From NCBI GenBank assembly GCA_016700135.1, contig CP065004.1:150001-182000 (forward strand): 32,000 nucleotides of DNA, written 5' to 3'. Each line of letters begins with the position of its first letter. Position 1 is the stretch's first letter. The notes under the pieces were generated by a model. That model worked only from the letters and a program-made list of their open reading frames with translations. It did not search any database and was not told the DNA's origin. This DNA comes from Candidatus Saccharimonadota bacterium. Its GTDB lineage: Bacteria; Patescibacteriota; Microgenomatia; UBA1406; GWC2-37-13. The position numbers and the translations under genes are program-made. Shown here in pieces: positions 11,501-32,000 of this stretch.

Positions 11501-11612
11501 GCGGTGTGCTTTCGAAAAAATTCGAACTGATTTCGCCCAAAATTTGTAGGGCGGGCGGAATTCCCCCCAGACCCCCCTTCCGCCCGCCCGCAGAAGCGAC
11601 CCTTTCGGATTG
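11501..11612. repeat. Inverted repeat X, left copy (112 nt)
   Basis: Reverse complement matches 14392-14503 except for two single-nt indels. GC-rich, with an internal 12-bp hairpin (ggcgggcggaa...ttccgcccgcc type). Confidence 0.9.
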
Positions 11613-11683
11613 GACGATTTCAAGTTTTTCGTTCCGCTTTTAGCGGAACTCTGGGTTTCGCCCAGTTTGGCGGCAAATTCTTT

Positions 11684-12598: not shown

Positions 12599-14010
12599 AT
12601 ATTTTCCTTAATTATATTTATAAAATTTTTTATGTCGATGAAGTTTGGTTGATTATTCTTTTGATTAAACAAATCATCTTTTTTAATTAAATCTTCTTTC
12701 ATCCTATTTACATATTTTGCTTCTTTTTCTGTCAGGAAGAAATTCCTGTTAAGATTGACAGCAGCTCTTCCCAATGTTCCGCTTCCAGCGAATGGATCAA
12801 AAATTAAATCATCAACAAAAGAATAATATTTTATAACTCTATTGCATAATTCCATTGGAAAAACAGCACTGTGAACCCTATCAAAAGTAGGGTCTATGTG
12901 CCAAACATTCGTGGTTTCGTATTTGTCTTGAACTTTGCTTTTCTTTACTTTATCCCAACTATATTGATGTATATTCCAGTCAATTAGTTTATCTGTCTTT
13001 TTTCTATAAACCATTAGCATTTCAGTAATTGCGTTAGGTTTATAACCTAATGGTTTTCGATGTTGTAAAAAACCCGCATTTCTATTTTTTACACTTGCTT
13101 CGGGTTTCACCCAAACTATATCGTCGATAAACTCCCAACCCATTTTAACCAATAAAGGATGAATGTCATATGGAATAGGGTATCTTTTACTTGCGTGAGC
13201 ACGACTTATTCTAGGAATTATAATTGGTGAAGTATTAAGTACAAAAAATCTACCTTCTTTTGTAACCCGATGAACCTCTTTAAAAACTTCCTCTAAAAAA
13301 TTTAAATACTCATCATAACTCTGATAAATTGAATAATCTCTAGCATTGTAATAGGGCGGTGAAGTAAAAGTTAAGTGAACAGATTCTTCAGGAACATACT
13401 TTAATACCTCTAAAACATCTCCTTGAACAATAGTATTTTTTAAATATTTAGGAAATTCATCGTGCTTGCCGCTATTTTTTGAACTATAGCTTACACCATT
13501 AATTTCCTTACCTATAACCTCCTTTATTAACTCATTCGGATGATTAAGTAATTTAGATAACTCTTTTTTAACTTGGTCATTATTTGAAAAAACAAGTAAT
13601 CCACGAATGGCCTGCATTACAACTTTCGGATCTTTATCTGATAATAATTTTATCAAGACTGGAATAGTTTTCTCGTTTCTTAATCGCCCAATAGCAGAAA
13701 CTGATTCTCTTCTAACTTCAGTACTTTCATCTTGTTTTGCGAATTTAACGAAAGTATCTAGTAAGGAAATATCACCAATTTTTGCAAGATTCTTCAAGGC
13801 AAGTGATCTTATTGTCTCATTGTTATTCTCTAATAAATTCAATAGTGGTTGTTTGCTGTATCCATTTTTCAATCTTCCTAATTTCTCTAACACATAAACA
13901 ATAGTACCGTCATTTTGATCTTGTAGAAACGATAAAAGAGCTTTTGTATCATTTTTTAAACTATCAATCTGTTCTTTGTTTATTTGTTTGCTTAAAACTG
14001 ATCTATTCAT
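12595..14010 (-). CDS. Beta-class N4/N6 DNA methyltransferase with an N-terminal HEAT-repeat domain
   Basis: Motif IV TFTSPPYYNARDY (SPPY, typical of m4C enzymes) comes before motif I FDPFAGSGTLGRAA, which is the beta order. The first ~180 aa have PBS-lyase/HEAT-like repeats (ETIRSLALKNLAKIGD, STEVRRESVSAIGRL, DPKVVMQAIRGL). Confidence 0.9.
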   Translation of the reverse strand: MNRSVLSKQINKEQIDSLKNDTKALLSFLQDQNDGTIVYVLEKLGRLKNGYSKQPLLNLLENNNETIRSLALKNLAKIGDISLLDTFVKFAKQDESTEVRRESVSAIGRLRNEKTIPVLIKLLSDKDPKVVMQAIRGLLVFSNNDQVKKELSKLLNHPNELIKEVIGKEINGVSYSSKNSGKHDEFPKYLKNTIVQGDVLEVLKYVPEESVHLTFTSPPYYNARDYSIYQSYDEYLNFLEEVFKEVHRVTKEGRFFVLNTSPIIIPRISRAHASKRYPIPYDIHPLLVKMGWEFIDDIVWVKPEASVKNRNAGFLQHRKPLGYKPNAITEMLMVYRKKTDKLIDWNIHQYSWDKVKKSKVQDKYETTNVWHIDPTFDRVHSAVFPMELCNRVIKYYSFVDDLIFDPFAGSGTLGRAAVNLNRNFFLTEKEAKYVNRMKEDLIKKDDLFNQKNNQPNFIDIKNFINIIKENI

Positions 14011-14014
14011 AATT

Positions 14015-14230
14015 TTATTTCATTAAATTATCAATAGTAATCCCTAATCCGTTAGCTATCTTCATAACTGTTTGAATAGTCGGTTTGGTTATTACATTGC
14101 TTTCAATTTTGGTTAGTGTTGTATAAGGAAGATCGGATTTTCTCGCCAATTCATCCTGTGTCAAACCTTGCTTATTTCTAAGCTGTTTTATTTTATCCCC
14201 AATGGTTTCATTATTGTTTTGACTTTTCAT
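14015..14230 (-). CDS. XRE-family HTH protein, probable R-M controller (C) protein
   Basis: 71 aa (IKQLRNKQGLTQDELARKSDLPYTTLTKIESN), ending 4 nt upstream of the methyltransferase start. Confidence 0.85.
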   Translation of the reverse strand: MKSQNNNETIGDKIKQLRNKQGLTQDELARKSDLPYTTLTKIESNVITKPTIQTVMKIANGLGITIDNLMK

Positions 14231-14284
14231 AGTTTCCTAAGTATGATAGTATTAGTATGGGTGCTTATTTAACCCTTCATAAAT

Positions 14285-14313
14285 ATGATAACAAATATAC
14301 TGGAATCAATCAA
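14285..14313 (-). promoter_or_regulatory. Candidate promoter of the C-M-R operon
   Basis: Minus strand: TTGATT (14313-08), 17 nt, TATCAT (14290-85). An AGGAAA SD precedes ATG 14230. Confidence 0.4.
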
Positions 14314-14324
14314 ATTAAAAATGA

Positions 14325-14343
14325 GGGAAGCCCGCTTTTGGCC
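14325..14343. repeat. 19-nt inverted repeat, left arm (partner 14602-14620)
   Basis: gggaagcccgcttttggcc versus ggccaaaagcgggcttccc. The flanking aaattaaaaatga (14312-24) also pairs with 14627-39. Confidence 0.9.
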
Positions 14344-14371
14344 CAAAATGAAGTTCGAGCCGATATTTTTT
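14344..14371. repeat. 28-nt inverted repeat P, left copy (partner 15987-16014)
   Basis: caaaatgaagttcgagccgatatttttt is the exact reverse complement of 15987-16014, which lies inside the recombinase 3' coding region. Confidence 0.9.
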
Positions 14372-14391
14372 CAGGTTCTTTGGCAGTTTTT

Positions 14392-14503
14392 CAATCCGAA
14401 AGGGCGCTTCTGCGGGCGGGCGGAAGGGGGGTCTGGGGGAGAATTCCGCCCGCCCTACAAATTTTGGGCGAAATCAGTTCGAATTTTTTCGAAAGCACAC
14501 CGC
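14392..14503. repeat. Inverted repeat X, right copy (112 nt)
   Basis: See 11501-11612. Internal hairpin gggcgggcggaa (14414-25) / ttccgcccgccc (14444-55) with an 18-nt G-rich loop. Confidence 0.9.
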
Positions 14504-14583
14504 CAGTTAGGAAATGTCTTTGTTGGCTCGTCGCCTCTCTCGAGGGCTCGCCAGCCGATTTTAAGCGCAAATTGGAATTTTTT
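14500..14583. repeat. Inverted repeat Q, left copy (84 nt, perfect)
   Basis: ccgccagttaggaaatgtctttgttggctcgtcgcctctctcgagggctcgccagccgattttaagcgcaaattggaatttttt is the exact reverse complement of 16021-16104. Confidence 0.95.
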
Positions 14584-14601
14584 CTTTGCCCCGAATGGGC
14601 T

Positions 14602-14620
14602 GGCCAAAAGCGGGCTTCCC
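14602..14620. repeat. 19-nt inverted repeat, right arm (partner 14325-14343)
   Basis: See 14325-14343. Confidence 0.9.
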
Positions 14621-14652
14621 TAATTTTCATTTTTAATTTTTAAGAAGGAACT

Positions 14653-16265
<1,613 letters not shown>

Positions 16266-16281
<16 letters not shown>

Positions 16282-17090
16282 GAGCCGAAGAACGGCGTTA
16301 TCCGCCAGGAATATACGAAGTCCCTCAAGTTGAGCCGGTACCTGTAGTTTTAGAAGAGTTCGGGCAACAGGTCTCACAACGGCTTCATGACGTCGCACAA
16401 AGAACAGGGACTATGCCCACGATCATCGCTCCTCTCAACGGATCTGTTATGCCTCTTTATGCCGTCTGTCGCGAATGGCAGCGGGCAGGAGGATGTGTTG
16501 AGGATATTGCCCATCAGGTACACCTGGTAAACACCCGCAAAGTAGGTGAAGCCGCCGAATGTGTCATTCTTACTGAAGAAGATCCTGGTGAACTGGCATT
16601 TGTAATTGAAGATATCATTGATGATGGCGGAACCGGCGAGATTATTGAAAAAGCCTATCCTGAAACCCATTTTGAACTTCACGCTCCTCTCAGCAAGGTC
16701 GGAAAGATAGAAACTGCACGGGCAAAACTTCCCCGGACAAAAGTCACAACAACAAGAACTGTTGACAATGTTTGGATTGTCGGCGGCGGGGGACTTGACG
16801 GAGGATCAATGAAACTGAACGGTGTCCACGATTACCAGAATGTCGAACTGGCAGTCGCTGCAAGACTTATGGATCGTTATGTATATCACAACAACGATGA
16901 GGTGCTTCCTCCGTATGAAGAGCAACTCCGGGCTTTTACTGCAGCAAGGCTCCCTTGGATCACTCCCGGATCTACAATTCACATGTGGATGCTTCGTGCT
17001 GAATGGGCAAAAATGAAAGGCAAGGTCGATGTTTTGCAGGATTTAGCCTCAATATTCCCTTACATTCTTCAAAACGAAATCGGATCATAA
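16266..17090 (+). CDS. Phosphoribosyltransferase, HGPRT-like, with a ~90-aa C-terminal extension
   Basis: PRPP-binding motif FVIEDIIDDGGTGE and VWIVGGGGLDGG (compare FVVGYGLDY of Hpt). Confidence 0.75.
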
Positions 17091-19725: not shown

Positions 19726-19754
19726 TTGACAAAAATCAACCTTTTGGCTACAAT
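19726..19754 (+). promoter_or_regulatory. Sigma70-type promoter, leaderless geometry
   Basis: TTGACA (19726-31), 17 nt, TACAAT (19749-54), 8 nt, ATG 19763. Confidence 0.6.
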
Positions 19755-19762
19755 GAGAGCAG

Positions 19763-20599
19763 ATGAGACGCTCCCGAATAACCATAACCCTTGAAACAAA
19801 CCTTCTTAAGAAAATCGATCGACTGATAGACAAGAAACAAATTCGGAATCGTTCACACGCTATTGAATATATTATTACACAGTATACTCAATCCACGGTT
19901 CATAAAGCAATCATATTGGCCGGAGGTCGCGGTACACAACTCCGTCCGTATACTTACGAAATTCCGAAACCAATGCTTCCCGTTTCCGGAAAACCAATTT
20001 TGGAGCATCTCATCAATCAGTTACGGGAGAACGGTATTACTGACATTATCATTGCCATCTCGTATCTCGGTGAACAAATAAAGAAATACTTCGGAACAGG
20101 AGAAAAATTCGGTGTTTCTATTTCCTATTCGGAAGAAGAAGAAAATTTATTGACTGGAGGCGCTTTGAACAAACTTAAAGACCTGGTGGGACAGGATACC
20201 TTTCTGGTAATACACGGCGATATCCTGACGGATTTTTCGTTTTCTGACTTTATCCAGTTCCACAAAAGACAAAATACCGTTGCAACTGTTGCCCTTACTA
20301 CCAGTTCTGAACCGACAGACTTCGGTCAAATTAAACTTCACGGAACTCATCTCACCAATTTTTATTCACATACTGAGCAGCCCGGAATGCAAAGCCACCT
20401 TATCAATACGGGAATATATGCGTTTGAACCGTCAATCTTCAATGAGTTTCCGAAGAAAGAAAAATTCGCTCTTGAAGACGTAATTACGGGTCTTATCAAT
20501 CAGCAGGAAGTCAGCGGATTCGTATTTGAGGGCAGCTGGTACGATGTAGGTAATCCCGAAAACTACGAAAAGGCAATAAAAGAGTATAAAAGAAAGTAA
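19763..20599 (+). CDS. Fusion protein: ribbon-helix-helix (CopG-like) domain plus sugar-1-phosphate nucleotidyltransferase
   Basis: N-terminus RITITLETNLLKKIDRLIDKKQIRNRSHAIEYII (RHH pattern), then AIILAGGRGTQLRPYTYEIPKPMLPVSGKPILEHLI (NTP_transferase G-loop). Confidence 0.85.
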   Translation: MRRSRITITLETNLLKKIDRLIDKKQIRNRSHAIEYIITQYTQSTVHKAIILAGGRGTQLRPYTYEIPKPMLPVSGKPILEHLINQLRENGITDIIIAISYLGEQIKKYFGTGEKFGVSISYSEEEENLLTGGALNKLKDLVGQDTFLVIHGDILTDFSFSDFIQFHKRQNTVATVALTTSSEPTDFGQIKLHGTHLTNFYSHTEQPGMQSHLINTGIYAFEPSIFNEFPKKEKFALEDVITGLINQQEVSGFVFEGSWYDVGNPENYEKAIKEYKRK

Positions 20600-20606
20600 T
20601 CCTTCT

Positions 20607-20936
20607 TTACAGTATTCCGTCTCCGACACCGAAAATAAATCCGAGAATCCGGGCGATAAGATATGACAACATCAAAAGGACAAAACCTATTATCCCTGCG
20701 GTCATCTTGGCTTTCCCGCTATTTACTTTGTCTGCATCGCCTCTTGACATCAAAAAGTCATACCCGCCCCAGATCAGTACAAGAAGAAGAATAACGGCCG
20801 CAAAAGGATAGAGAAAGTTAGTCATAACAGTTACCAGATCCGTGAGAGACGTAATTCCTTCCAGCGGACCTTTAATGGTTACGGCTTTACCGTTTTCAGG
20901 TTGTATAACCAATCCTTGGGCGAGAGTGTTTGTCAT
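20607..20936 (-). CDS. Two-TM T4SS-type (TrbC/VirB2-like) pilin candidate
   Basis: Hydrophobic helix, LIWGGYDFLMSRGDADKVNSGKAKMTAGIIGFVLLML, second helix. This is the pattern I recall for the Patescibacteria T4SS_pilin family. There is no obvious N-terminal signal peptide. ATGA overlap with the upstream gene. Confidence 0.55.
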   Translation of the reverse strand: MTNTLAQGLVIQPENGKAVTIKGPLEGITSLTDLVTVMTNFLYPFAAVILLLVLIWGGYDFLMSRGDADKVNSGKAKMTAGIIGFVLLMLSYLIARILGFIFGVGDGIL

Positions 20937-21610
20937 ATTTTCTTGGAAATCATTAACACTGTCTGCAACAAAAATAGTATAAGGGCATGTATCCCCAATG
21001 ATATCAGCAGATAGATATTAATAGCATACACAAAAGCGGAGGTAGCTTCAAGAAGCATGTCCCACTGGACAACTCGTGAAAAGTCAATCTGAAAAATGTA
21101 TATAATTCCGGCTGCAACAATAGCTACAGGAATGAGATATACAATATCAATTAAATCCTGTTTCGAGGAAAACATTGTGGTAGAAAGAATAAATACGAGC
21201 CATCCGACGGTTATTTTCAAAAAGATATTGGAAGATTCAAATATTTGCAGACTAAAAAGCCACCAAAAAAGTAGTAACCCGACAATAACAGGAGCAATTC
21301 CTACAAGGACGCTTCTGACAACATCTTTTTTTTCATAATAAACACTTCCGAGTTTGAGATACCTTCCTTCCCACTGCGGGAATACATGTATATCACGCAC
21401 TTTCAACAAAAGAATTACGGCCATCACGAAATGTGAAAGTTCGTGTATGACTGTTCCGGGAAAGAATATGAAAGCGATCAGACTGTAGACAATCTTTTCA
21501 TGATCAAAAATGAGCCGTAATACCTGAAACAATCGGGTGATACTGAGTCGGGAAACAAAAAAAAGGACTATGAGTTGAAGAATAAATAACCCGACTAAAA
21601 TAAGTTCCAT
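20933..21610 (-). CDS. Polytopic membrane protein with an HExxH zinc-protease motif (S2P/M50-like)
   Basis: PGTVIHELSHFVMA lies within a TM segment, with at least 5 further hydrophobic helices and a possible third-ligand region SSKQDLIDI. Confidence 0.65.
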   Translation of the reverse strand: MELILVGLFILQLIVLFFVSRLSITRLFQVLRLIFDHEKIVYSLIAFIFFPGTVIHELSHFVMAVILLLKVRDIHVFPQWEGRYLKLGSVYYEKKDVVRSVLVGIAPVIVGLLLFWWLFSLQIFESSNIFLKITVGWLVFILSTTMFSSKQDLIDIVYLIPVAIVAAGIIYIFQIDFSRVVQWDMLLEATSAFVYAINIYLLISLGIHALILFLLQTVLMISKKI

Positions 21611-21613
21611 GAC

Positions 21614-21766
21614 TTAAAGAATTTGCCGTGCAAGCAAATACGCAATGAGACCTAAAACAATAACGGTTAAAATACCGATAACTATAAAGAGTGTATTACT
21701 CAGTCCTTTCGTTTCAAATCGACGTTCAAATTCATCGACATTGAGAGGTGTATAGTTAGCAGTCAT
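21614..21766 (-). CDS. 50-aa single-TM peptide (below the ORF-track cutoff)
   Basis: Own translation: MTANYTPLNVDEFERRFETKGLSNTLFIVIGILTVIVLGLIAYLLARQIL*. It fills the gap between the ClpC-like stop (21778) and the protease start (21610). Confidence 0.4.
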   Translation of the reverse strand: MTANYTPLNVDEFERRFETKGLSNTLFIVIGILTVIVLGLIAYLLARQIL

Positions 21767-21777
21767 ACGGTAATCGG

Positions 21778-24700
21778 TTATGCCGTCTGCTGTTTTGCAG
21801 TACCATCAGCTGTCTGATCGGAAGCGGAACTCTGCTGCGGCGGTACCTCAGCTCCTGGCGCACTGTCAACAATTTGTGGTTTGATCGGTTCGAGCCCGTT
21901 CATTTTCCCGTTTGTCTGCTCTTTTTTGGGCGGTGCGGGAGGTACATCCATCGCCTTGTTCTCTGGTTTCTTTTCGGCAACAGCTTCAGATTTTTCCTGA
22001 GGTACTTCATCCTTCACTTCCTGGACTTCTATTGAGGCACACTTGGAACATATTGTTGTGGCAGTCGGAATGACGTCTGTTTCAAACTTATTGGCACATT
22101 TTTCACAGAAAAACTTGGCATGTCTCATCTTCTGACCGTCCTGGACATCTTCATCTTTGACTTCTTTCAGCTCAATTTTTTCAACATTGAAAATAAATTC
22201 ATCACCGTCAAAGTCTACAATAAGAGTATCACCGGCTTTCACTTTTTGAGCAATAATAAGCTCAGAAATCGGATTTTCAACCAGTTTCTGAATGGCGCGT
22301 CTTAATGGTCGTGCACCGAATACAGGATCAAATCCTTCGCGTACGATTGCTTTCTTTGCTGCATCCGTGACTGAGAAACCAATCTCCTGCTCTTCGAGGA
22401 GCTTTGCCAAAGCTTTCAGCTGAAGATCAACGATCTGAAGCATATGCTTGTATTTCAGCGGCTCAAATACGATGACTTCGTCAAAACGGTTGACAAGCTC
22501 AGGGCGGAAGAACTTCAGGAGTTCGTTCATAACCTTGTCCTTAATCACCTGATACTTCTTCACATCGGTCTGTTCTTCTACCTTTTCTTTTTCCTGTGCT
22601 TCCTTCTCAAGCGGGAAGTTCTTGCCGAAATACTCATCCAATGGTTGCATTTTCCATTCCGTTGCTTTCTGGTCACGATGCCATATATCATTACCCACGA
22701 TAACAATCTCTTTTCCTGTCGGTGTAAACGTATGGATATCCCAATGGGTTGCGGGAAAATTGTCATCTTTTACCGTCTGTCCCTCGAAATACTCTTTCAA
22801 AAGACCCGTCTGCCAGTCAGTACTCCCTGCTTTTCTTCTCCAAAAACGATCTTTGTATGACACAATTTCCATCTCATCAGGACTGAAGGCATGAGTCTTC
22901 AGACGCACCGTCGGCAACTGTTCATCCGGAGCATCAGGCAAGGCATTAATGACTACATTGTCATTGAAATAATCAATCAGATTTGTGACATTCCATACTT
23001 TCGAAGTGGTTGCGGTACGGGAATATATGATATCGCCCGTTGAGATCATTTCCACTCCTTTTGGTGAGATGGCATGAGTGTCATATCCGAATGTCGGGAA
23101 AGACGTGATTTTCGGTTTTTCTTCTGCCGGTTTTGCCTGCTCCTTTACGGGCTGCTCTTTGCCTTCAACAGTATTCTCTTCTTCAGGCTTTTCAGGCTCC
23201 GGTTGTTGCAATGCTTCAGGTTTTTGCGTCGGCATTTTGCCGTCAATTTTCTGTCCTGCAAAATACTCAGTCAATTTATGATCTGCCCAGGACATTTCGG
23301 CTTTCTGATCTTCTTTTTTTTCTTCAGGCTTCTGTTGCTGACCGTTTGTCATATCCAGACTGTTTGCGGTTGTGCCGTTGTCTCTTTCAAAATACTTATT
23401 CCCGATCGTCATAAGTTCACGACCTCTCGGCGTAAAAGCATACGTCGAAATGAGGGTCGGTTCTGCAACTTCCGACTTTCCGCTCTTCAACAGTTCCTTT
23501 TGAATGAGAGGAGTTCCGATGTTTGACGTACAGATCACGACGGTATTCTTGAACGAAATAGTTCGTCCTTTGTTGTCTGTCAAACGGGCATCATCAAGAA
23601 TCTGCAGCAGAATGTTGAAAATGTCAGGATGTGCTTTTTCAATTTCGTCAAAAAGAACGAGTGAATACGGCTTTCGGCGAACGGCCTCTGTCAGTTTTCC
23701 TCCGTCTTCAAATCCGACATAACCGGGAGGCGGCCCGAGAAGCTTTGCCACTTCATGACGCTCCATATATTCGGTCATATCAAATCGGGTTACGGCTTCT
23801 TCTTCATCAAAAAGTACTTCCGCAAGTGTCTTGGCAAGTTCCGTTTTTCCCACACCGGTCGGTCCCAAGAATACGAAACTACCGATCGGACGATTGTTCG
23901 ATTTCAAACCTGCCCGTCCGCGTCTCACGGCTTGGGCGACGGATGCCACCGCACGTTCCTGATCAATCATTCTTTTGTGAATGATGTCTTCGAGGTTTGA
24001 TAATTTGTCCTTCTCAGAAGTACCGATCTTGGATATCGGGATACCGGTTCTTGTGGCAACAATGTCTTTAATTATTTCAGGAGAAACAGCCGTGGTGGTC
24101 TGTGCTTTCTTCATATTGTATTCATCCTGTTTGACTTTCAGCTTGGCCTGTACATCATCAATTTTTGAGCGGAGAATGCGGGCCTTGACCTTTTCGCCTC
24201 TTCTTTCATCTTCCGCAAGCTCCTGATTGAGTTGAGCTACGCGGGTTTCTATTGAATGGATTTCTTCAGGAAGAGAAATGAGCGGCAGACGGACTGCTGC
24301 AGATGCTTCATCCATCAAATCAAATGCCTTGTCTGGAAGGAACCTGTCTCCGATGTACCTTTTTGAAAGTTTTACCGCCAGCTCGATAACTTCATCTGAA
24401 ATTTTTACTTTGTGGAATGCTTCATATTTACTTTTTGTAGCCTTCAGCATCTTGATGGCAGCCTCTTCTGTCGGTTCAGGAACAAGAACTGTCTGGAACC
24501 TTCTTTCAAGTGCCGGATCCTTTTCAATATATTTTCTGTATTCGGTAATTGTTGTTGCTCCGATAAACTGCACCTCACCTCTGGCCAGAGCCGGTTTTAT
24601 GAAATTGGATGCATCCAAGGCACCCTCACCGCTTCCAGCTCCCATCATTGTATGCATTTCATCTATGAACATGATAGCTTCACCTTTACTCGCTTTCAGT

Positions 24701-26211
24701 TCATCAACAACGCTTTTCATACGTTCTTCAAATTCTCCCCGATGAGATGCTCCGGCGACCACACTCGCTAAGTCAAGCTGGAGGATCTTTTTATTGAGAA
24801 GGCTTTCAGGAACCTGCTTTTCAACTATCCGTTGTGCAAGTCCTTCCACGACTGCAGTTTTTCCTACTCCCGGTTCACCGATAAGTGCCGGATTGTTTTT
24901 GATTCTGCGTGAAAGAATGTGTACCACTCTCTCAATAACAGGTGCTCTCTCGACAACAGGATCCAGCTCACCGTCAGCAGCTTTTTGTGTCAAATCAATA
25001 CAATACATCTGCAACGCAGATTTCTGCTTTTGCTTTTTATCGTCTTTTGTTGCCTCTGCTGAGAATACTCCGCCTTTCTTTCCGGTTATTCTTTTGTTGA
25101 TATCTTCTTTCGTGACTCCGAGTTTGACCAGTATACGGGCGCCTACGCCTTCACCTTCTTCATACAAAGCAAGAAGAAGATGTTCGGGGGAAATAAATTC
25201 ATAACCGAGTTTTCGCGCGACAACAAGGGATTTTTCAACTATTTGCTTCACGCGAGGAGACAGTTGCGGAGGGTTCTGACTTTCTTCTTTTTTATATATT
25301 TTCACGAGCTCCTGTTCTACAATCTGCGGCTGAATTTTCAAATCAATAAGGATTTTATAGATCTCACCGTCTGTCAAAAGTCCATGGAGGAGATGTTCAC
25401 TATCCATGTAGATATTTTTTAGTTCTTTTGCTTTTTTGTTTGCTTCGACAAACACAGCGTTTGAACGCTGAGTCAAATGGGTCATGATATCTAAATCATT
25501 TCTTTTCTTGCCGCTCAACGTGGAGTCCAAAACATTTTTCGCGGCAGACGGCTGAACGGAGCCGTCAATAGCCTTCTGACCGTCCTGATTTGCTGCGGGA
25601 TTTGATGTAGTTTCAGGTTTCTGAGTATCTGCTGAGAGTGTACTTTCAGTAGACGTTTCAGTCTTTTCCTTTGCCATATCATCAGGTTTCTGTAATGTAT
25701 TCTGTTCTTTTTTCATTTCAGCATCCATCTTTGTCTCTTCTGCAGGAACAGGTGTTCCCGTTGTATCATTCATTTTCGGCGGCGCCGGCGGCATATCAGC
25801 GGCTTTTACATCTGCCATCTCCGCTTTTTTCATTTCAGCTGCGGCTGGTACTGTGGCCGGTTCTGCCTGATTCACCGCTTTCGGTGGAGGGGTTCCGATA
25901 CCGTTATAAGACTGACCGTTAGGAGGATTACCGATTCCGTTATATGATTGACCGTGGGAAGGGTTACCTATTCCATTGTAGGAATCGCCGTGTGCAGGGT
26001 TTCCGATACCGTTATAAGACTGTCCGTTTGAGGGATTACCGATACCATTGTATGATTGCTGGCCGCTTGGCATCGGCGCATCAGTTTGTTGTGCAACAAC
26101 CTTCGGTTGATTTGATGTATTCATAGTAGGATTCGCGTCAGTAACTGACGTTGTGTCACTTGTATTTGCATTTGGGGTTTGTTTCTTTATAAAATCAAAT
26201 ATACCGGCCAT
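21778..26211 (-). CDS. clpC: Atypical ClpC-type class I AAA+ unfoldase (about 1477 aa) with N-terminal repeats, a D2 insertion and a C-terminal zinc ribbon
   Basis: Two Clp_N repeats ([30 protein letters not shown]). D1 has [15 protein letters not shown] and IMFIDEMH. Short ClpC-length M domain. D2 has [62 protein letters not shown]. Start set at M8 (26211) because a consensus promoter lies inside the longer ORF. Confidence 0.9.
25885..26064. repeat. 36-bp coding tandem repeat x5 ((G)[12 protein letters not shown])
   Basis: Units align at period 36 on the + strand (e.g. ...ttccgataccgttataagactg...). The peptide is conserved while the DNA units differ at many positions. Confidence 0.85.
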
Positions 26212-26217
26212 ATATTC

Positions 26218-26246
26218 ATTATGAGCAAGCATTTTCCAAATGTCAA
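26218..26246 (-). promoter_or_regulatory. Sigma70-type promoter of the clpC-like operon, leaderless geometry
   Basis: Minus strand: TTGACA (26246-41), 17 nt, CATAAT (26223-18), 6 nt, ATG (26211-09). Confidence 0.6.
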
Positions 26247-26256
26247 CATCAGATAT

Positions 26257-27030
26257 ATGAAGAAAATATCAATACTATTACTCTTACTTTTTTTGCTTTT
26301 TATGAGCTCGGCGACTTATTCGAGAGCCTCAAATGAGGAAAGCTCTGCAGAAAAGGTAAAAAAGCCTGCAAGGAATCTTTTTTACTTTTTTAAAGACATC
26401 GGTAATAATTCTTCTCCAGATACGGGTGCCCCTGATCCAACCTTACCACCAGACGCTTCACCTGCGCCTACTTATGGCCCTCCTCCCGCCCCGATTTATG
26501 ATACACAACTTGCTAACCTTATGGAAGCAATCAAACAGAAGGCTCACAGTAACTGTACTATGTTCGGGACCGGAATAGTAGCGACACAAAACAGTTACTG
26601 CGTCCAGCCTATCGCAAATGTCTCAGGGATCCAAAACGGTCAATCTGTTGTCAACGATATGAAATACTCTGCCGATAATTACTACTATCTGCAATGTGTA
26701 GGTTGCGCCGTCGCCATGGCAAAAGCAAACGGGAAACCGTACCTCGGATGGGGTAATGCAAAACAGCATGCGGATCAATCTGTCTTGGGATACACATATG
26801 TGCCTTACACTTCAGCTTCTTCGGCATATTCAGTCAAACCGGGCTCTTTGTTTATTCTGACAGGCGGGACATACGGACATATCGGAATGGTGTCTGAAAT
26901 TATTTATGACGAGAATAATAGACCTCATTCATTCCGAGGCTTTGAATGTAATTACCAGGCGAATGGGTATGTCAGCCACGAAAAAACCTGGGCATTTGAT
27001 CAGATAGCCGGTTTTCAGGTACCAAACTAA
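26257..27030 (+). CDS. Secreted CHAP-domain peptidoglycan hydrolase (H1)
   Basis: Signal peptide [24 protein letters not shown], leader [17 protein letters not shown], Pro-rich linker. CHAP triad context LQCVGCAV ... GHIGMVSEI ... FECNY. Confidence 0.8.
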
Positions 27031-27031
27031 C

Positions 27032-27757
27032 ATGAAACAAAAAAAATTAATTATTATTCTTGCAGTTGCCGTAATAATACTTCTAATAACTTTATTTTTT
27101 CTTAACATGAGAAGAAATGCGGGAACAGACGTCAAAGAGGAAATTGATACCCTTCCTACGGGAATTATTGTTCCTACCAACACTATAGAAAATAATGAAC
27201 TGGATATCGTATCCGTTTCACCATCAGACAGAGCACAAACTGTCAGTGTAAATACCTCAATCCGCATTACATTTTCCCGAAAACCCAAAGAAGAAGAAAT
27301 TGATTTTTTCATGGGTCCAGACGCAATCTACTCTCAGGAAATCAAAGATAATGTATTGATTATCACACCCTGGAAACCGCTCGCCGAAGGTACATTGTAC
27401 ACATATAGTATCAATTTCCCACAGGATAACCAAAAAGTCCGTCTGTATCGATTTGTAACTGAAGGGACACTGAGCGAAATTCTTCCTGATACGCGATCAA
27501 ATGACCTCATAGAAGAAGTTGAAGAAAAAGAACGGGTTAATCATCCTGACATATATATTACTAATAGAACACCTTTCGAAGACAGTACATTTTCAATCAG
27601 ATCTGATTTTGAACCCAAAACCCCTGCTCACTATTATTTTATCGTTACATCAAAAATCAATGACCGAAGTACTGTCGAGCAGGCTGTTAATGCTTGGCTG
27701 CAGCTTCAGGGCCTTACCGAACAACAAATTAACGGCCTGGATGTCCGTTATCAGTAA
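27032..27757 (+). CDS. Single-pass membrane protein with an Ig-like (SbsA_Ig/Big_5-type) ectodomain (M1)
   Basis: N-terminal TM LIIILAVAVIILLITLFFL. SVSPSDRAQTVSVNTSIRITFSRKP...VLIITPWKPLAEGTLYTYSI. Starts 2 nt after the H1 stop. Confidence 0.7.
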   Translation: MKQKKLIIILAVAVIILLITLFFLNMRRNAGTDVKEEIDTLPTGIIVPTNTIENNELDIVSVSPSDRAQTVSVNTSIRITFSRKPKEEEIDFFMGPDAIYSQEIKDNVLIITPWKPLAEGTLYTYSINFPQDNQKVRLYRFVTEGTLSEILPDTRSNDLIEEVEEKERVNHPDIYITNRTPFEDSTFSIRSDFEPKTPAHYYFIVTSKINDRSTVEQAVNAWLQLQGLTEQQINGLDVRYQ

Positions 27758-27760
27758 CAT

Positions 27761-28585
27761 ATGAAAAAAATTATTATCTTCTTCCTATCCCTGCTTGCTG
27801 TCGTTCAATCCGTTCGTGCCGAAATACCGATGATTGACCGGGGCGACGGGTATGCAGTTTATCCAACTTCTTCAAGCAAAAAAAGTGTTGAAAAAATTAA
27901 AGAAGTACCTCGTAATTTATTTAATTTTTGGGATTTTAACGAGGATAATAATCCGGATGAAATTCAACCCATCCCGACTCAGCAGCCATCCTTCATATCT
28001 GGGACACCTGTACCGTCTCCAGTACCGACAGCAGCGCAGACAAACCCCACTCTTCCTCCTGCTCAAACTACAGCCGGCTGTCCGGATGCAAATACCAGAA
28101 TTCATATTTCAGGTACGCGTTATCGACATCTCAATAGATATCTTCCCTGCGACCGGCCGCGCATGCTAGTGATCCATTGGTCTGCCGGTTGGTCATCGGC
28201 ACAGGCAACATTTGACGTGCTTAATAATCGCGACCGTTCATGTCAGTTTGCAGTTGATGACCATGAAGTGATACAAATGCTGAACCTTTATCCTAACGCC
28301 GTCGAGCGGGGATGGTGCGCTGGTGGAGATGCCAATACGGGATCTATCAACTTTGAGATCACCGGTGCATGGTTTGATGAAGTACTGCTGCAATCAGGTT
28401 CGGAAAAAAACAGACAGCTTATGATCATGACGGACAAGACCGTAGATATCGCCTGCAGAATGATACAAATGTACAGTATACCGAAAACGGCAATTTACGG
28501 ACATTATCAACTTCAATCAGGAAAATCTGACCCGGGAGTATCCTATTTACAATTTTTTAAGCAAAAAGTAAACGAGCGATGTTAA
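27761..28585 (+). CDS. Secreted N-acetylmuramoyl-L-alanine amidase (Amidase_2/PGRP fold) (H2)
   Basis: Signal peptide ...VQSVRA, leader EIPMIDRGDGYAVYPT...EKIKEVPRNLFNFWDF, Pro-rich linker. VIHWSAG (Zn His), INFEITG, YGHYQL..GKSDPG (AmpD-like His/Lys/Asp). Confidence 0.85.
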   Translation: MKKIIIFFLSLLAVVQSVRAEIPMIDRGDGYAVYPTSSSKKSVEKIKEVPRNLFNFWDFNEDNNPDEIQPIPTQQPSFISGTPVPSPVPTAAQTNPTLPPAQTTAGCPDANTRIHISGTRYRHLNRYLPCDRPRMLVIHWSAGWSSAQATFDVLNNRDRSCQFAVDDHEVIQMLNLYPNAVERGWCAGGDANTGSINFEITGAWFDEVLLQSGSEKNRQLMIMTDKTVDIACRMIQMYSIPKTAIYGHYQLQSGKSDPGVSYLQFFKQKVNERC

Positions 28586-29181
28586 ATTTCATTGATCTGC
28601 AGGAAAAAAAATATACAATCATCATTGCAGTATCTTCAGTAGTACTGATCCTTATTCTGGTGATATCGGGAATACTGGTCCGAAATCGCAGTAACCCCAC
28701 GGAAACTGTGTCGGGTACGCCAATTAATCCAACGGGCGTACAGACTGCACAGATTTCACCGACTGAAATTCCTGCTAACTATTATGTATTACCTACTCCT
28801 CTATCAGATGAAAATGTGCCGACGGCACCACCAACACCTGTTCCTCAAGAAGGAGATATCATACTAGACGGCATCGCAGTAAACGATTTTAAGGAAAATG
28901 CAGAACGAACTACTGTTGACGGCGATACCGTCCTAGCAGAAACAAGTAATTACCAGATTGTATTTTATGAAAAGACACAGGAGTTTACCATCAGCCTGAT
29001 AGGCACAGATTTTGAAAAATCCAGAATCGCAGCCGAAAATGCTTTCCTCGTAAACCTGGAGATAGATCGTGCGAATGCCTGCAGACTTTTCGTGAATGAA
29101 TATGTGCCCAACACCGTCAACAATGAACACAGCGGTGAAATATTACCCTTAAGTTTCTGCTATCATGAACATGATGAGTAA
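28579..29181 (+). CDS. Single-pass membrane protein, unknown ectodomain (M2)
   Basis: TM YTIIIAVSSVVLILILVISGILV, then a Pro/Thr linker. Overlaps the H2 stop by 7 nt. Confidence 0.7.
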   Translation: MLNFIDLQEKKYTIIIAVSSVVLILILVISGILVRNRSNPTETVSGTPINPTGVQTAQISPTEIPANYYVLPTPLSDENVPTAPPTPVPQEGDIILDGIAVNDFKENAERTTVDGDTVLAETSNYQIVFYEKTQEFTISLIGTDFEKSRIAAENAFLVNLEIDRANACRLFVNEYVPNTVNNEHSGEILPLSFCYHEHDE

Positions 29182-30079
29182 ATTTGTTACCGGAATAGTA
29201 ATTACTTTTGTATTTCTGGTCGTAACCTCTGTAATATTTGCCGAGATGCCTATGATCGATCGGGGAGACGGATATGCCGTTTATCCCACACGAAAGAAAA
29301 CTACAATAGAAAAAATAAAAGAAGTTCCGAAATCTCTTTTTGATTTGTTTGATGGTTCGGGGACCTCTGGGAATAACCAACCCACTCCTATACCAACTTC
29401 CGAAGCGGGCATCACACCGGGTCTAACGCCCGGGGTAAGTACCACACCAATCGACGCTTCAAGCCCGATCGATAATATCCTTCAGGGAAGTGAAGTTACC
29501 TATTCACCCGCAATTATTGCAAGCGTAAGGAACTGTATGACGAATGCGAATGTATATAAAATTGCAGAGCAGCGGACAGGAGTATCATGGAAAATCATCG
29601 CAGGAATTCACTATATGGAAGGGAACTGCGGGAGCAATAAATCCTGCGTCAGCGGCAGACAGCTCGGTGTCAATGAACCCGATCTGTACGGTAATTGTTC
29701 TGGAGGAGGCGGGGAAGGCCGGCCGGTTCCTCTCGGAGGGGGAGGATGCGGTTTTAGGAATCTGGTTGACAGCTGCATCTATGGAGGAAATCACCTCAAA
29801 GGAAAAATTCAGGGAAGAGTTCCTCAAACTCTGCAGGAACTCGCCTATGCGCTGGGAAGATACAACGGACTCGGAAACAGAAACTGCGGAAAAACCCCCT
29901 ATGCACACTGCCCGCCTTCGTTTGACAATGATGATCATATTTACCCGATGAGCCAATTTGATAAGAAGCATGAGACAATGTATCTTGTGTACTGTGCCGA
30001 CTATACGACATGTAATCCGCCGCGAATCTTTCAAAGAATCGGAGCTTTGAGTGTTGCAAGGATCCTGACAAACTTATGA
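29165..30079 (+). CDS. Secreted Cys/Gly-rich protein, possibly a lysozyme-like/lytic transglycosylase (H3)
   Basis: Signal peptide ...TSVIFA, leader EMPMIDRGDGYAVYPT...EKIKEVPKSLFDLFDG, Pro/Thr linker. WKIIAGIHYMEGNCG resembles an SLT-type catalytic Glu context, and there are 12 Cys. The catalytic assignment is tentative. Confidence 0.6.
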   Translation: MNMMSKFVTGIVITFVFLVVTSVIFAEMPMIDRGDGYAVYPTRKKTTIEKIKEVPKSLFDLFDGSGTSGNNQPTPIPTSEAGITPGLTPGVSTTPIDASSPIDNILQGSEVTYSPAIIASVRNCMTNANVYKIAEQRTGVSWKIIAGIHYMEGNCGSNKSCVSGRQLGVNEPDLYGNCSGGGGEGRPVPLGGGGCGFRNLVDSCIYGGNHLKGKIQGRVPQTLQELAYALGRYNGLGNRNCGKTPYAHCPPSFDNDDHIYPMSQFDKKHETMYLVYCADYTTCNPPRIFQRIGALSVARILTNL

Positions 30080-30636
30080 AACTAACTAACAAAAAAATTA
30101 TTATATTGATCTCTGCTCTGGTCGGAGTACTTGTTCTGATAATCTTAATACTGAATGTGATAACACAACGGAAAGAAACCGCTACTCCTGAGACAAATCC
30201 CGAAGTTATAAAGAAGGAAGTACAAAAGGTAATTGAAATTACGGAAGTTCCCCGGGTTCCTGATGAAAAGGGAGGAGGGATTGATACTGATTCTCCTGAA
30301 GTAAAGACCTCCGTTCAGTCATTACAAAAGCTTCAATCAGCGCTTCCCTTTTATAAAATTTTCACAACTGAAGACGGAACAGAAGTCGAAGTTTCCATTC
30401 CTCCTACATCAACAATTTCAAATGAGTGGACTTTACTCGTCCATATTTTCGGCCCGGACTATCAGATTCCCGAAGATTCGTCCGATTATGAGACTCAAAA
30501 ACAAGCATTTCTGGCCGGAGTAAGTGAAGTTATGCTTTTTCTCGAAGAACAGGAAATCAATCCTTCAGAAATAATCATCCAATGGGGCGACAGAGCAATC
30601 ATAGGTGACCGGTCTGCCAAATGGCTTTCGGAATAA
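30076..30636 (+). CDS. Single-pass membrane protein, unknown ectodomain (M3)
   Basis: TM IIILISALVGVLVLIILILNV. ATGA overlap with the H3 stop. Confidence 0.7.
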   Translation: MKLTNKKIIILISALVGVLVLIILILNVITQRKETATPETNPEVIKKEVQKVIEITEVPRVPDEKGGGIDTDSPEVKTSVQSLQKLQSALPFYKIFTTEDGTEVEVSIPPTSTISNEWTLLVHIFGPDYQIPEDSSDYETQKQAFLAGVSEVMLFLEEQEINPSEIIIQWGDRAIIGDRSAKWLSE

Positions 30637-30644
30637 ATCCGTCG

Positions 30645-30674
30645 TTGACTTTCTTTTCCGTTTTGCAGTAGAAT
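30645..30674 (+). promoter_or_regulatory. Sigma70-type promoter, leaderless geometry
   Basis: TTGACT (30645-50), 18 nt, TAGAAT (30669-74), 7 nt, ATG 30682. Confidence 0.55.
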
Positions 30675-30681
30675 GAATTGT

Positions 30682-32000
30682 ATGTTTAAGTATCTGCTTT
30701 TAATGGGTTTTGGATTCTCCAAGTATGCTTTCCATGTCGTGAAACGAATAATGATTGTTTTACTGGTTTTTACCTCAGTTATTTCTTTATTTTTCTTCTT
30801 TAGGCAAGATAAAAAAATTCAGGATAACGCTTCATATATGTCTGTTCAACGAGAAAGAATATATATGAATATCGAAGCTATGAAAAAAGATACTTCATCG
30901 GAAGGTAAAGCAAAACTGTTTGTATATCAAGGATGGATGTGTAACATCATAGGAGAAGCTTGTACCGACAATCCCGAAGATGCAAATATGAACGTCAGAA
31001 ATAGCCTTTCAGGAATCATAACCGGATGGATCACAGCACCGTATGCAAATCCTCCAGCATCCGGGATAGCCTGGCTGAAAGACGGTTTCCGTGATGCTGG
31101 TTTTGTACCGGAGACTTATGCTGCAACGGGAGTGGGCTTCGCATCTATTGCAAGTTATATGGAAATTTGGAAGCTGTTTAGGGATATTGCTTATCTTATC
31201 TTAGTGTTGGTCATGATAACGATAGGATTCATGATAATGTTTAGAGTTAATCTCGGAGGAGCCGCAGTAAGCATTGAGGCTGCCCTCCCACGAATTGTAA
31301 TCGCAATGATTATGATTACATTTTCATTCCCAATAGCAGGTTTCTTGATTGACCTTATGTATACATTAATCGCCATTAGCGTTGGTTTATTCTTTGATGT
31401 TGCGATTCAACAAGATGCTCTTACAGGCGAATATTCCTCTGCAAAGGAATATCTCAATCAGTATATGACAGCCGGTATTTGGCAAATCTGGCCAGACGGC
31501 GGTGGTACATATTTTTCCGTAGGTAACAGTTTATGGAGACTCATGCCAGCATCAGTACAAAACATGTTTCATATTGCAATGGTTGTACCGCTTGCAGTTA
31601 CTGCTGCTGATAAGTTCGGATGGATGACAGGTAAAATTGCAGACTTATTTAAGGGACTCTCCCTTGCCGGATTTAGTTCTGGAAACTTGGCAGGTATTCC
31701 GCATGTGGTCTTATTATCAGTACTCTTCGGAGCATTAGTTATATGGGGACCCGGATTAATTTTTGGGGGAATTATTATGCTCACAGTGCTACTCTTTGTA
31801 TTCCGGATATTTTTTATGCTGCTCGAGTCTTATATTAAAATTTTACTTTACATTATTTTTGCGCCAATTATTTTGCTCTTTAGCGCTATACCAGGAAACG
31901 GAAATATCGGCTGGTGGTTACGAAACCTTATAGGAGAGCTTATAACATTTCCAACAGTAATTGTCCTTACACTAGTAGGCAACGCCGTTCTCGCAGTGAA
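30682..32000 (+). CDS. Polytopic membrane protein, VirB6/TrbL-like candidate (3' end beyond the window)
   Basis: Own translation of frame 1, with no stop to nt 32000 and so absent from the ORF track: MFKYLLLMGFGFSKYAFHVVKRIMIVLLVFTSV...FRIFFMLLESYIKILLYIIFAPIILLFSAIPGNGNIGWWLRNLIGELITFPTVIVLTLVGNAVLAV. At least 6 hydrophobic helices. Confidence 0.7.
   Translation, partial: MFKYLLLMGFGFSKYAFHVVKRIMIVLLVFTSVISLFFFFRQDKKIQDNASYMSVQRERIYMNIEAMKKDTSSEGKAKLFVYQGWMCNIIGEACTDNPEDANMNVRNSLSGIITGWITAPYANPPASGIAWLKDGFRDAGFVPETYAATGVGFASIASYMEIWKLFRDIAYLILVLVMITIGFMIMFRVNLGGAAVSIEAALPRIVIAMIMITFSFPIAGFLIDLMYTLIAISVGLFFDVAIQQDALTGEYSSAKEYLNQYMTAGIWQIWPDGGGTYFSVGNSLWRLMPASVQNMFHIAMVVPLAVTAADKFGWMTGKIADLFKGLSLAGFSSGNLAGIPHVVLLSVLFGALVIWGPGLIFGGIIMLTVLLFVFRIFFMLLESYIKILLYIIFAPIILLFSAIPGNGNIGWWLRNLIGELITFPTVIVLTLVGNAVLAV

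Follow-up and report, generated by a model that had tools for sequence, protein, structure and literature searches.

The 32-kb window analysed here, by which we mean the whole stretch of 32,000 nucleotides (nt; positions 150,001 to 182,000 of contig CP065004.1), ends in a group of genes centred on a variant of the ClpC-type AAA+ unfoldase. It is firmly established that these genes belong to a conserved chromosomal envelope locus of Candidatus Roizmanbacteria (Microgenomatia, Patescibacteria), composed of VirB2-like pilins, a protease resembling the site-2 proteases (S2P), wall hydrolases with membrane partners, two large proteins, and a clade-specific ClpC that lacks the ClpP-docking loop. The locus has three core parts. 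The first is one operon, which encodes the ClpC variant, a transmembrane (TM) protein with an NYTPL motif, the S2P-like metalloprotease and a small VirB2-like pilin. The second is a divergent operon, encoding one to three Sec-exported hydrolases together with paralogous single-pass partners, and then a polytopic protein of about 570 amino acids (aa). The third lies past the window end, and is a convergent pair comprising a tail-anchored protein of about 1200 aa and a secreted Cys-rich protein with a pilin domain. Our preferred reading, which is tentative and falls a little short of being probable, is that ClpC acts independently of ClpP, at the membrane, on proteins of this pilin/envelope module, most plausibly the pilin.

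The gene layout, open reading frame (ORF) coordinates and spacings given in a first-pass annotation of this DNA were confirmed in the ORFs of the window (Table 1). On the minus strand, the ClpC-like gene is followed by genes for a 50-aa single-TM protein, a 225-aa HExxH membrane protein and a 109-aa pilin of family PF18895. The ClpC stop is separated from the 50-aa gene by 11 nt, and the 50-aa gene from the 225-aa gene by 3 nt, while the 225-aa gene and the pilin gene share a 4-nt ATGA overlap. The plus strand carries in turn a CHAP hydrolase, partner 1, an Amidase_2 hydrolase, partner 2, a 304-aa secreted protein and partner 3, spaced by +1, +3, -7, -17 and -4 nt, and then the polytopic gene, whose start (30682) is 45 nt beyond the end of partner 3. 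The first-pass annotation had described a translationally coupled plus-strand unit followed by the polytopic gene. The spacing of the six genes bears this out, but the polytopic gene has a promoter-like site of its own (30645-30674, a match to the sigma-70 consensus) and therefore need not belong to the six-gene unit.

The first ATG of the ClpC ORF is at 26232, which would give a protein of 1484 aa (21778-26232). The true start is most likely M8 (nt 26211), because the identical NCBI product (P0146, 100% identity, annotated Candidatus Roizmanbacteria) has 1477 aa, the length counted from M8. With this start, and with the CHAP ATG at 26257, the divergent gap is 45 nt. The sigma-70-like sites at 19726-19754, 26246-26218 (minus strand) and 30645-30674 are among the best matches in the window and include its only two 11/12 matches. 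They end 7-8 nt before the ATGs of an NTP-transferase gene (19763), of ClpC (M8) and of the polytopic gene, which suggests that leaderless or near-leaderless mRNAs may be made from these three starts. The total count of promoter-like sites in the window is not above the shuffle expectation.

Relatives of the locus were collected with a profile of the polytopic protein, which has more than 574 relatives among GTDB species representatives. Eighty loci (given L numbers below) were examined, with flanks of up to 10 kb on either side, and were compared by BLAST with the window proteins and by clustering of all ORFs into families. The region beyond the window end was represented by L004, in which ClpC is 88% identical, and by L003 (79%). 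The consensus order on the left, all in the minus direction, is a RecF-like gene, an AA-kinase/methyltransferase gene, the small pilin, the HExxH protein, the NYTPL protein and ClpC. To the right of the divergence come a hydrolase, a partner of about 145 aa and the polytopic gene in the plus direction, and then, in the minus direction again, the pilin-domain protein, the ~1200-aa protein, Jag, YidC and a tRNA synthetase. Most of the related loci adjoin jag and yidC, genes that are usually found near the replication origin.

Loss of this linkage in relatives had been named in the first-pass annotation as a sign that the gene order is accidental. Such loss was not seen: ClpC, pilin, hydrolases and polytopic gene stay together in dozens of Roizmanbacteria/Microgenomates genomes. 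ClpC lies upstream of the polytopic gene, always divergent from it, in 39 of the 49 loci that have at least 5 kb of upstream flank; in three others it is downstream, the block of polytopic, pilin-domain and 1200-aa genes being inverted, and in seven there is no ClpC in range. The small pilin follows ClpC in 27 of 30 loci by script, and in 29 of 30 after L013 and L059 are recognised as gene-call artefacts. In relatives whose ClpC has no insertion (see below), its 3' end is overlapped by the pilin ORF. Convergence of the pilin-domain gene on the polytopic gene was seen in 64 of 67 loci, and the ~1200-aa protein in 58 of 58. The same order, together with a precomputed PF18895 match, is found in two contexts that were anchored on ClpC and had independent gene calls. 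The linkage persists as ClpC drops to about 55% identity and the polytopic protein to 33%. Many of the GTDB representative metagenome-assembled genomes (MAGs) that carry a Roizmanbacteria-type locus bear the title 'uncultured Gammaproteobacteria bacterium', evidently a wrong name or a placeholder.

The larger member of the convergent pair is a highly charged, α-helical, cytoplasmic protein of about 1200-1400 aa with a single C-terminal TM anchor (14285-18310 in L003, and in 58 other loci). This neighbour, at about 1200-1340 aa, was considered as a hidden VirB4 and rejected, since it is tail-anchored, has no conserved Walker A motif (2 of 61) and has no match in Pfam, NCBIfam or PDB. ClpC is the only ATPase of the conserved envelope locus. 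The other member, the secreted Cys-rich protein (about 250-870 aa; 12141-14222 in L003), ends in a PF18895 pilin domain, and in sequence looks like a pilin-anchored adhesin or tip protein.

ClpC itself has a conventional core. Pfam assigns it two Clp_N repeats, AAA, AAA_lid_9 and ClpB_D2-small, together with an AAA_2 domain that is interrupted at model position 135. The closest PDB match is Bacillus subtilis ClpC (E 2.6e-228), which aligns to window residues 253-911 (chain 6-666) and 1221-1349 (chain 676-804). The Pfam domains, the gap-free alignment to B. subtilis ClpC and the motif positions agree that two AAA+ rings (D1 and D2) with Walker A/B motifs, a Clp_N domain and a short M-domain are present. 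Structures of ClpB align in two stretches broken at the M-domain, whereas B. subtilis ClpC aligns through it. No NCBIfam Hsp100 equivalog cut-off is reached; the top matches are ClpB, ClpK, ClpA and ClpG, and the ClpB equivalog (TIGR03346), with its cut-off of 1232 bits, scores 924. Both the Walker motifs and the GYVG pore loop of D2 are intact, so that the variant should, on its motifs, be an active translocase.

The departures from this core are shared by the clade. The only part of B. subtilis ClpC left unaligned is nine residues around the VGF ClpP loop, and an insertion sits there. The ClpP-docking tripeptide that follows D2 sensor-1, [LIVM]-G-[FL], is absent between TSNIG and FRPELVNR in the window ClpC. 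It ([ILVM]G[FL]) is absent throughout the examined ClpCs of the clade, with or without the insertion, except for scattered single matches inside four long insertions; the relatives without the insertion have a short K/E-rich loop of 45-66 aa, which has no repeats and likewise no ClpP tripeptide. The first-pass annotation was thus right that the canonical docking loop has been lost, and the loss is clade-wide, so that ClpC should work without ClpP. In D1, the pore loop has ASHR where KYR is canonical, in 113 of 116 clade members. Full-length members begin MAxFFDFIKK and continue with a low-complexity linker of 60-240 aa; in the window the linker has about 230 aa and is disordered, making an N-terminal extension of about 240 aa in all. 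The FFDFIKK motif is found in no non-ClpC protein of 82 loci and is possibly a membrane- or partner-docking peptide. A CxxC...CxxC zinc ribbon near the C-terminus is present in nearly all members (Table 1).

The four β repeats within the insertion are an addition of the window's own subclade, placed exactly at the position of the ClpP loop. Each repeat consists of four β strands and a short helix, with the consensus H-A-F-S-P-x-G-x-E-I...W...EYF, and the repeats are joined by disordered linkers rich in K, E and P. The AlphaFold2 model of D2 plus insertion has a mean predicted local distance difference test (pLDDT) score of 74.7, with about 85-94 in the repeats, and the D2 module is normal. Foldseek supports the D2 fold, with a TM-score to target of about 0.8 and a list dominated by Clp matches; Pfam gives no match to the insertion alone. 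The repeat is rare, having 36 representatives among 1.84e9 proteins. Ten of its matches were scanned with Pfam, and comprised four Clp fragments, one protein without a Pfam domain, and five weak matches in other proteins, namely DUF2961 proteins, a dockerin protein and an NHL β-propeller protein. The sequences of these non-Clp relatives fit a blade-like repeat.

The N-terminal linker of ClpC contains SYNGIG motifs, which are present in 103 of the 110 ClpCs with the insertion and in none of the 12 without it, a comparison uncorrected for phylogenetic non-independence. This suggests that the motif and the β module may work together, as a case of motif-domain co-evolution. The possibility that ClpC genes are sometimes split, raised by ~450-aa proteins that start inside the insertion, was rejected, as there is an N-run in L001, and L002 and L016 are contig ends. 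Assemblies do break in the ClpC insertion (the N-run is within the gene, at 9850-10000 of L001, and the two contigs of MAG JAOAEC01, L002 and L016, end inside it), and consequently spurious 'hypothetical proteins' of about 450 aa are found in databases.

The last gene of the ClpC operon had been called a T4SS-type pilin, that is, one of type IV secretion system (T4SS) kind. This assignment is upheld by a PF18895 match above cut-off and by a sub-threshold NCBIfam match to Mbov_0395, a pilin-like conjugal transfer protein from an integrative and conjugative element of Mycoplasma. The protein has a conserved N-terminal LAQ...GPL, two TM helices around a K-rich loop and a C-terminal IFGxGxGI tail. 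The two-TM hairpin and K-rich loop are kept in 33 orthologues, and the N-terminus (M..LAQ...GPL), as read from the alignment, has no hydrophobic signal core. PF18895 is also above cut-off in the C-terminus of the 693-aa neighbour in L003, and there are precomputed PF18895 matches in L002, L085 and L086.

The claim that the upstream gene encodes an HExxH membrane protease was borne out at the level of its motifs. Residues H56, E57, H60 and D152 are invariant in 24 orthologues, of which 17 match M50 and 12 match M50B (best E 1.9e-6, for M50B). The window protein scores 13.5 bits against Pfam M50/M50B, for which the cut-off is 27.2, and its only PDB match is the Aquifex RseP-type protease at E 0.65. 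We read it as a divergent S2P-like (M50/M50B) intramembrane metalloprotease, and a candidate pilin-processing enzyme. Between this gene and ClpC, the NYTPL family is found in 17 loci; its orthologues have 64-135 aa, with a Pro/Thr-rich tail.

On the other side of the divergence, the first-pass annotation had described three secreted peptidoglycan hydrolases, each with a single-pass membrane protein. This holds for the CHAP and Amidase_2 proteins, and the wall-hydrolase component of a T4SS is present by virtue of these two matches above cut-off, being assigned by domain type. The third hydrolase is not confirmed: the 304-aa protein has no PDB sequence match and no Pfam match above cut-off, the nearest being SLT_2 below threshold, although the member of its family in L021 matches SLT at E 3e-4. 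All the hydrolases carry Sec-type signal peptides. The single-pass partners are paralogues of one family (hhalign 95-97%; 97% for partner 1), and the cognate pairing of partners with particular hydrolase types is conserved across loci; for example, the CHAP/partner-1 pairing recurs in L003, L004, L011, L048 and L056. The hydrolase slot is modular, and in different genomes contains CHAP, Amidase_2, M14, C39_2, SLT, M23, NlpC/P60 or α/β hydrolase domains. Immediately before the polytopic gene, 50 of 61 loci have at least one hydrolase/partner pair, and in the window's lineage the pairs have expanded from one to three.

The amidase and the 304-aa protein share a module after the signal peptide, E-x-PMIDRGDGYAVYP...KE(V/A)P+(N/S)LF (window 27820-27950 and 29250-29370), of which the CHAP protein has only the P+NLFxFF part. 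The motif PMIDRGDGYAVYP...P+NLF was considered as a general targeting signal of the window hydrolases, and was rejected because it occurs only in the window, L003 and L004.

The polytopic protein had been labelled VirB6/TrbL-like, and this label could not be confirmed. Its family is large and found here only in Roizmanbacteria/Microgenomates-type genomes. There are no Pfam matches in 63 members, no NCBIfam matches, and no PDB sequence matches with the profile. Comparison by hhalign with PrgH (2% probability) and with Tn916 Orf15 (0.1%) is not significant. The AlphaFold2 model (pLDDT 80.9) is all-helical, with very long helices, and Foldseek finds nothing for it at E <= 0.001. Non-significant matches are nevertheless a hint, from the model, of a VirB6-type protein: Legionella DotA is ranked first and R388 TrwI/VirB6 chains are ranked 2, 3, 6, 7, 9, 16, 21 and 22, with E 0.5-4 (0.5-1.1 for the first three ranks) and TM-scores of at most 0.36. 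VirB6 has been described as 'scarce' in Microgenomatia, 'suggesting extreme sequence divergence' (Quinonero-Coronel et al. 2025, PMC12102498), which leaves room for the polytopic family. This family of ~570-aa proteins without a Pfam domain is thus a candidate for the VirB6 that profile searches miss in Microgenomatia.

These components can be assembled into a mechanism in which ClpC serves the pilin/envelope module. The amphipathic FFDFIKK peptide, on its long flexible linker, would hold the ClpC hexamer at the membrane or at a partner. The hexamer could then extract, recycle or quality-control the two-TM pilin, and/or pass it to the intramembrane protease. The hydrolase/partner pairs would open the wall, and the polytopic protein would act as an assembly platform. 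The four β-blade repeats of the window's subclade would hang from the ClpP-facing side of the D2 ring to provide a new docking surface, possibly one that binds the co-occurring SYNGIG motifs. Should this be true, it would be the first case of an Hsp100 linked with a pilin of T4SS type, in parallel to ClpV in the type VI secretion system (T6SS). There are precedents: ClpV is an Hsp100 without ClpP that is dedicated to recycling of the T6SS sheath, and VirB4 is reported to dislocate the VirB2 pilin from the membrane (Kerr and Christie 2010). Patescibacteria need surface machines to live on other bacteria, and the analysis names candidates for interaction, in the form of FFDFIKK, the SYNGIG motifs, the zinc ribbon and the β-blade insert. 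The T4SS-like pilin systems of Patescibacteria have a function described as 'completely unknown', although they proved essential in the only species tested (PMC11665869).

Several observations weigh against an action of ClpC on the pilin module. The conserved block also holds RecF-like, AA-kinase/methyltransferase, Jag, YidC and tRNA synthetase genes; synteny alone is therefore no proof of a functional link, and phylogenetic inertia could explain the adjacency. The sampled genomes all belong to one clade, so that the counts are not independent events. In L008, L021, L037 and L073 the pilin, protease and NYTPL protein face the hydrolases without ClpC, and L001 has ClpC with a PAS kinase downstream in place of the pilin. 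The hydrolases have Sec-type signal peptides; as clients of Sec/YidC, neither they nor the pilin obviously require a cytoplasmic unfoldase. Nor can the polytopic protein be called VirB6 with confidence. Finally, the first-pass annotation's placing of ClpC in a T4SS cluster fails in the usual sense of the term, since the conserved gene families of the 80 loci, which cover ±10 kb around the polytopic gene, include neither VirB4 nor VirD4, and VirB4, VirD4, VirB11 and ClpP are not encoded in the window. Six Roizmanbacteria genomes that carry the locus are scored VirB4-positive in Table S1 of PMC12102498, and in these VirB4 must lie outside the examined flank. The annotation's remark that a Clp unfoldase is not a described T4SS component agrees with the literature searched: 'Clp' is absent from the Patescibacteria T4SS paper (PMC12102498) and its supplementary files, a 2025 T4SS review, a 2024 Patescibacteria perspective and the Southlakia transposon-insertion sequencing (Tn-seq) paper. 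A search for literature on ClpP or ClpC in Microgenomates gave nothing usable.

It is quite possible instead that the variant, like ClpB, ClpL or ClpG, is a stand-alone unfoldase or disaggregase that serves the lineage in general, and that its position upstream of the pilin reflects the frozen gene order of a compact genome, with co-expression at most and without mechanistic coupling. From the N-terminal domain through the M-domain and the two AAA+ rings it aligns along its whole length with B. subtilis ClpC, its top NCBIfam matches are ClpB, ClpK, ClpA and ClpG, the conserved block includes plainly unrelated genes on both sides, and four genomes have the pilin module without ClpC. There is an Hsp20 gene elsewhere in the window, and genomes of the candidate phyla radiation (CPR), at about 1 Mb, usually have few chaperone paralogues. 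However, the adjacency of ClpC and pilin (about 29 of 30) is better kept than that of pilin and AA-kinase, where the NTP-transferase lies between in nine loci and which is missing in about six, and it is kept in loci where the adjacent block is inverted (L007, L012, L014, L017). Co-translation is suggested by the tight coupling and by the overlap of ORFs. The loss of the D1 Tyr, the membrane-helix-like N-terminus and the β repeats on the exit face would be odd for a general disaggregase. Even a housekeeping role would leave a clade-wide ClpC without ClpP and without the D1 pore-loop tyrosine.

A separate question, whose answer is compatible with any of these roles for ClpC, is whether the plus-strand pairs are effector-immunity pairs directed at the host bacterium's wall, and not VirB1-like wall openers with tethers. 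We consider this rather unlikely. The enzyme domains between ClpC and the polytopic gene are variable and modular, the cognate enzyme-partner pairings are conserved, and the window's lineage has gone from one pair to three, all of which speaks for it; the effector/immunity pairs of the Xanthomonas X-T4SS are a precedent. Against this, the presence in 50 of 61 loci of at least one pair just before the polytopic gene is more like that of a core component, the partners form one paralogous family (hhalign 95-97%) and not a set of enzyme-specific inhibitor folds, and the signal peptides of the hydrolases are ordinary Sec ones.

A stronger form of the preferred reading, which we think unlikely, makes the ClpC variant the dedicated cytoplasmic motor of a pilin-based envelope machine encoded at the locus, operating without VirB4. 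Tethered by FFDFIKK and docked by its β blades or zinc ribbon, it would move the two-TM pilin out of or into the membrane. It would dock on the S2P-like protease, the NYTPL protein or the polytopic protein, and the whole would be an Hsp100-driven system of pilus assembly or retraction, analogous to ClpV in the T6SS but with a membrane pilin as its client. It is very improbable that the locus encodes a split membrane AAA+ protease, an FtsH-like pair in which the HExxH protease replaces ClpP, with the NYTPL protein as anchor or adaptor, and processes or degrades membrane proteins including the pilin precursor: the clade-wide loss of the ClpP loop, the gaps of 11 nt (ClpC/NYTPL) and 3 nt (NYTPL/protease), the invariant catalytic HExxH and Asp and the new modules on the ClpP-facing side of D2 speak for it, but the protease was detected in only 29 loci as against 50 for ClpC, in many loci (L019, L045, L059, L062, L079) ClpC is followed directly by the pilin, four loci retain the protease without ClpC, the active sites of S2Ps are embedded in the membrane, and no S2P is known to be fed by a Clp ring.

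Table 1. Coordinates of the envelope locus within the window, with the evidence for each feature.
Feature	Position (nt)	Strand	Evidence or remark
Small T4SS-type (VirB2-like) pilin, 109 aa	20607..20936	-	Pfam PF18895, 33.1 bits (cut-off 26.6)
Polytopic HExxH membrane protein, 225 aa	20933..21610	-	Motif conservation; M50/M50B matches among orthologues
50-aa single-TM protein, N-terminal NYTPL(D/N) motif	21614..21766	-	Conserved gene family
ClpC-type double-ring AAA+ unfoldase variant, 1477 aa from M8	21778..26211	-	Pfam domains; best PDB match B. subtilis ClpC
C-terminal CxxC...CxxC zinc ribbon of ClpC	22039..22107	-	Weak Zn_ribbon_8 match; motif in nearly all clade members
~310-aa insertion of ClpC at ClpP-docking-loop position, four blade-like repeats	22573..23499	-	B. 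subtilis ClpC alignment; AlphaFold2 model
D1 pore loop of ClpC, His for Tyr of KYR motif	24727..24756	-	Alignment to B. subtilis ClpC
Five SYNGIG motifs in ClpC N-terminal linker	25894..26052	-	Residues 61, 73, 85, 97, 109; exact 12-residue spacing
N-terminal FFDFIKK motif of ClpC, amphipathic	26182..26211	-	Opens essentially every full-length clade ClpC
Divergent intergenic region, 45 nt	26212..26256		Minus-strand TTGACA-17-CATAAT at 26246-26218, ending 7 nt before ClpC M8 ATG; consensus match only
Secreted CHAP-domain peptidoglycan hydrolase	26257..27030	+	Pfam CHAP, 34.9 bits (cut-off 26); signal peptide visible in sequence
Single-pass partner 1, Ig-like Big_5 plus small C-terminal domain	27032..27757	+	Big_5, 36.4 bits, above cut-off
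Secreted Amidase_2 (N-acetylmuramoyl-L-alanine amidase)	27761..28585	+	Pfam, 44.1 bits (cut-off 26)
Single-pass partner 2	28579..29181	+	N-terminal TM helix; orthologue in L004
Secreted 304-aa protein, candidate lysozyme/SLT-like	29165..30079	+	SLT_2 sub-threshold, E 0.24
Single-pass partner 3	30076..30636	+	No Pfam match; pairing with 304-aa family in seven loci; hhalign to common ~145-aa partner, probability 95%
Polytopic membrane protein, cut by window end; candidate VirB6 analogue	30682..32000	+	Full length ~575 aa in L003/L004; no Pfam domain

The remainder of the window encodes EF-G, repair glycosylases, a RecD-like helicase, a ZIP transporter, Hsp20, a serine recombinase, a RecF-like ATPase, an AA-kinase/methyltransferase fusion, an NTP-transferase and a low-GC restriction-modification island. 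The island (11600-16300, about 30% GC) contains a CfrBI-like restriction endonuclease, an N4/N6 DNA methylase fused to HEAT repeats and a helix-turn-helix controller. It is adjoined by the large serine recombinase, and is probably a mobile insertion. The NTP-transferase (19763-20599) has an N-terminal ribbon-helix-helix and is encoded on the opposite strand between the pilin and the AA-kinase/methyltransferase gene, a position that it occupies in only nine related loci.

Of the characterised Hsp100 proteins, the ClpC of B. subtilis and Staphylococcus aureus (the MecA-ClpC-ClpP system) is collinear with the window protein over both Clp_N repeats, D1, the short M-domain, D2 and D2-small. The window protein differs in having the β-repeat insertion of ~310 aa in place of the VGF loop, SHR in place of KYR in D1, an N-terminal extension of ~240 aa with FFDFIKK and SYNGIG, and a C-terminal zinc ribbon with a disordered tail, and in being operonic with a pilin. 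ClpG/ClpK and ClpL are likewise ClpP-independent class I Hsp100s with extra domains, and ClpK and ClpG are among the top NCBIfam matches; the scores, however, are 723 and 711 against a cut-off of 1900, and the extra domains are different and differently placed.

The locus as a whole has parallels among T4SS loci. The T4SS of Patescibacteria (Southlakia SEML1_0006-0019; PMC12102498) are also chromosomal, with PF18895 VirB2-like pilins, in monoderm cells and beside jag and yidC, but here there is no VirB4, VirB3/PrgI, TrsD or coupling protein within ±10 kb. The Orf16-Orf15-Orf14 module of Tn916 and PrgH-PrgK of pCF10 similarly combine a large polytopic protein with adjacent small single-pass proteins and a bifunctional wall hydrolase; in the present case the hhalign comparison of the polytopic protein is non-significant, and there is no adjacent VirB4. 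ClpV is dedicated to remodelling a polymer of the T6SS machine, and its client is the cytoplasmic sheath. The window protein differs from ClpV/TssH in its score (TIGR03345, 692 against a cut-off of 885), in having no T6SS genes around it, and in that its putative client would be a membrane pilin. Both are nevertheless Hsp100 proteins without a ClpP loop that are encoded in the locus of an envelope machine, and ClpV/TssH is the closest functional analogy to the ClpC variant described here.

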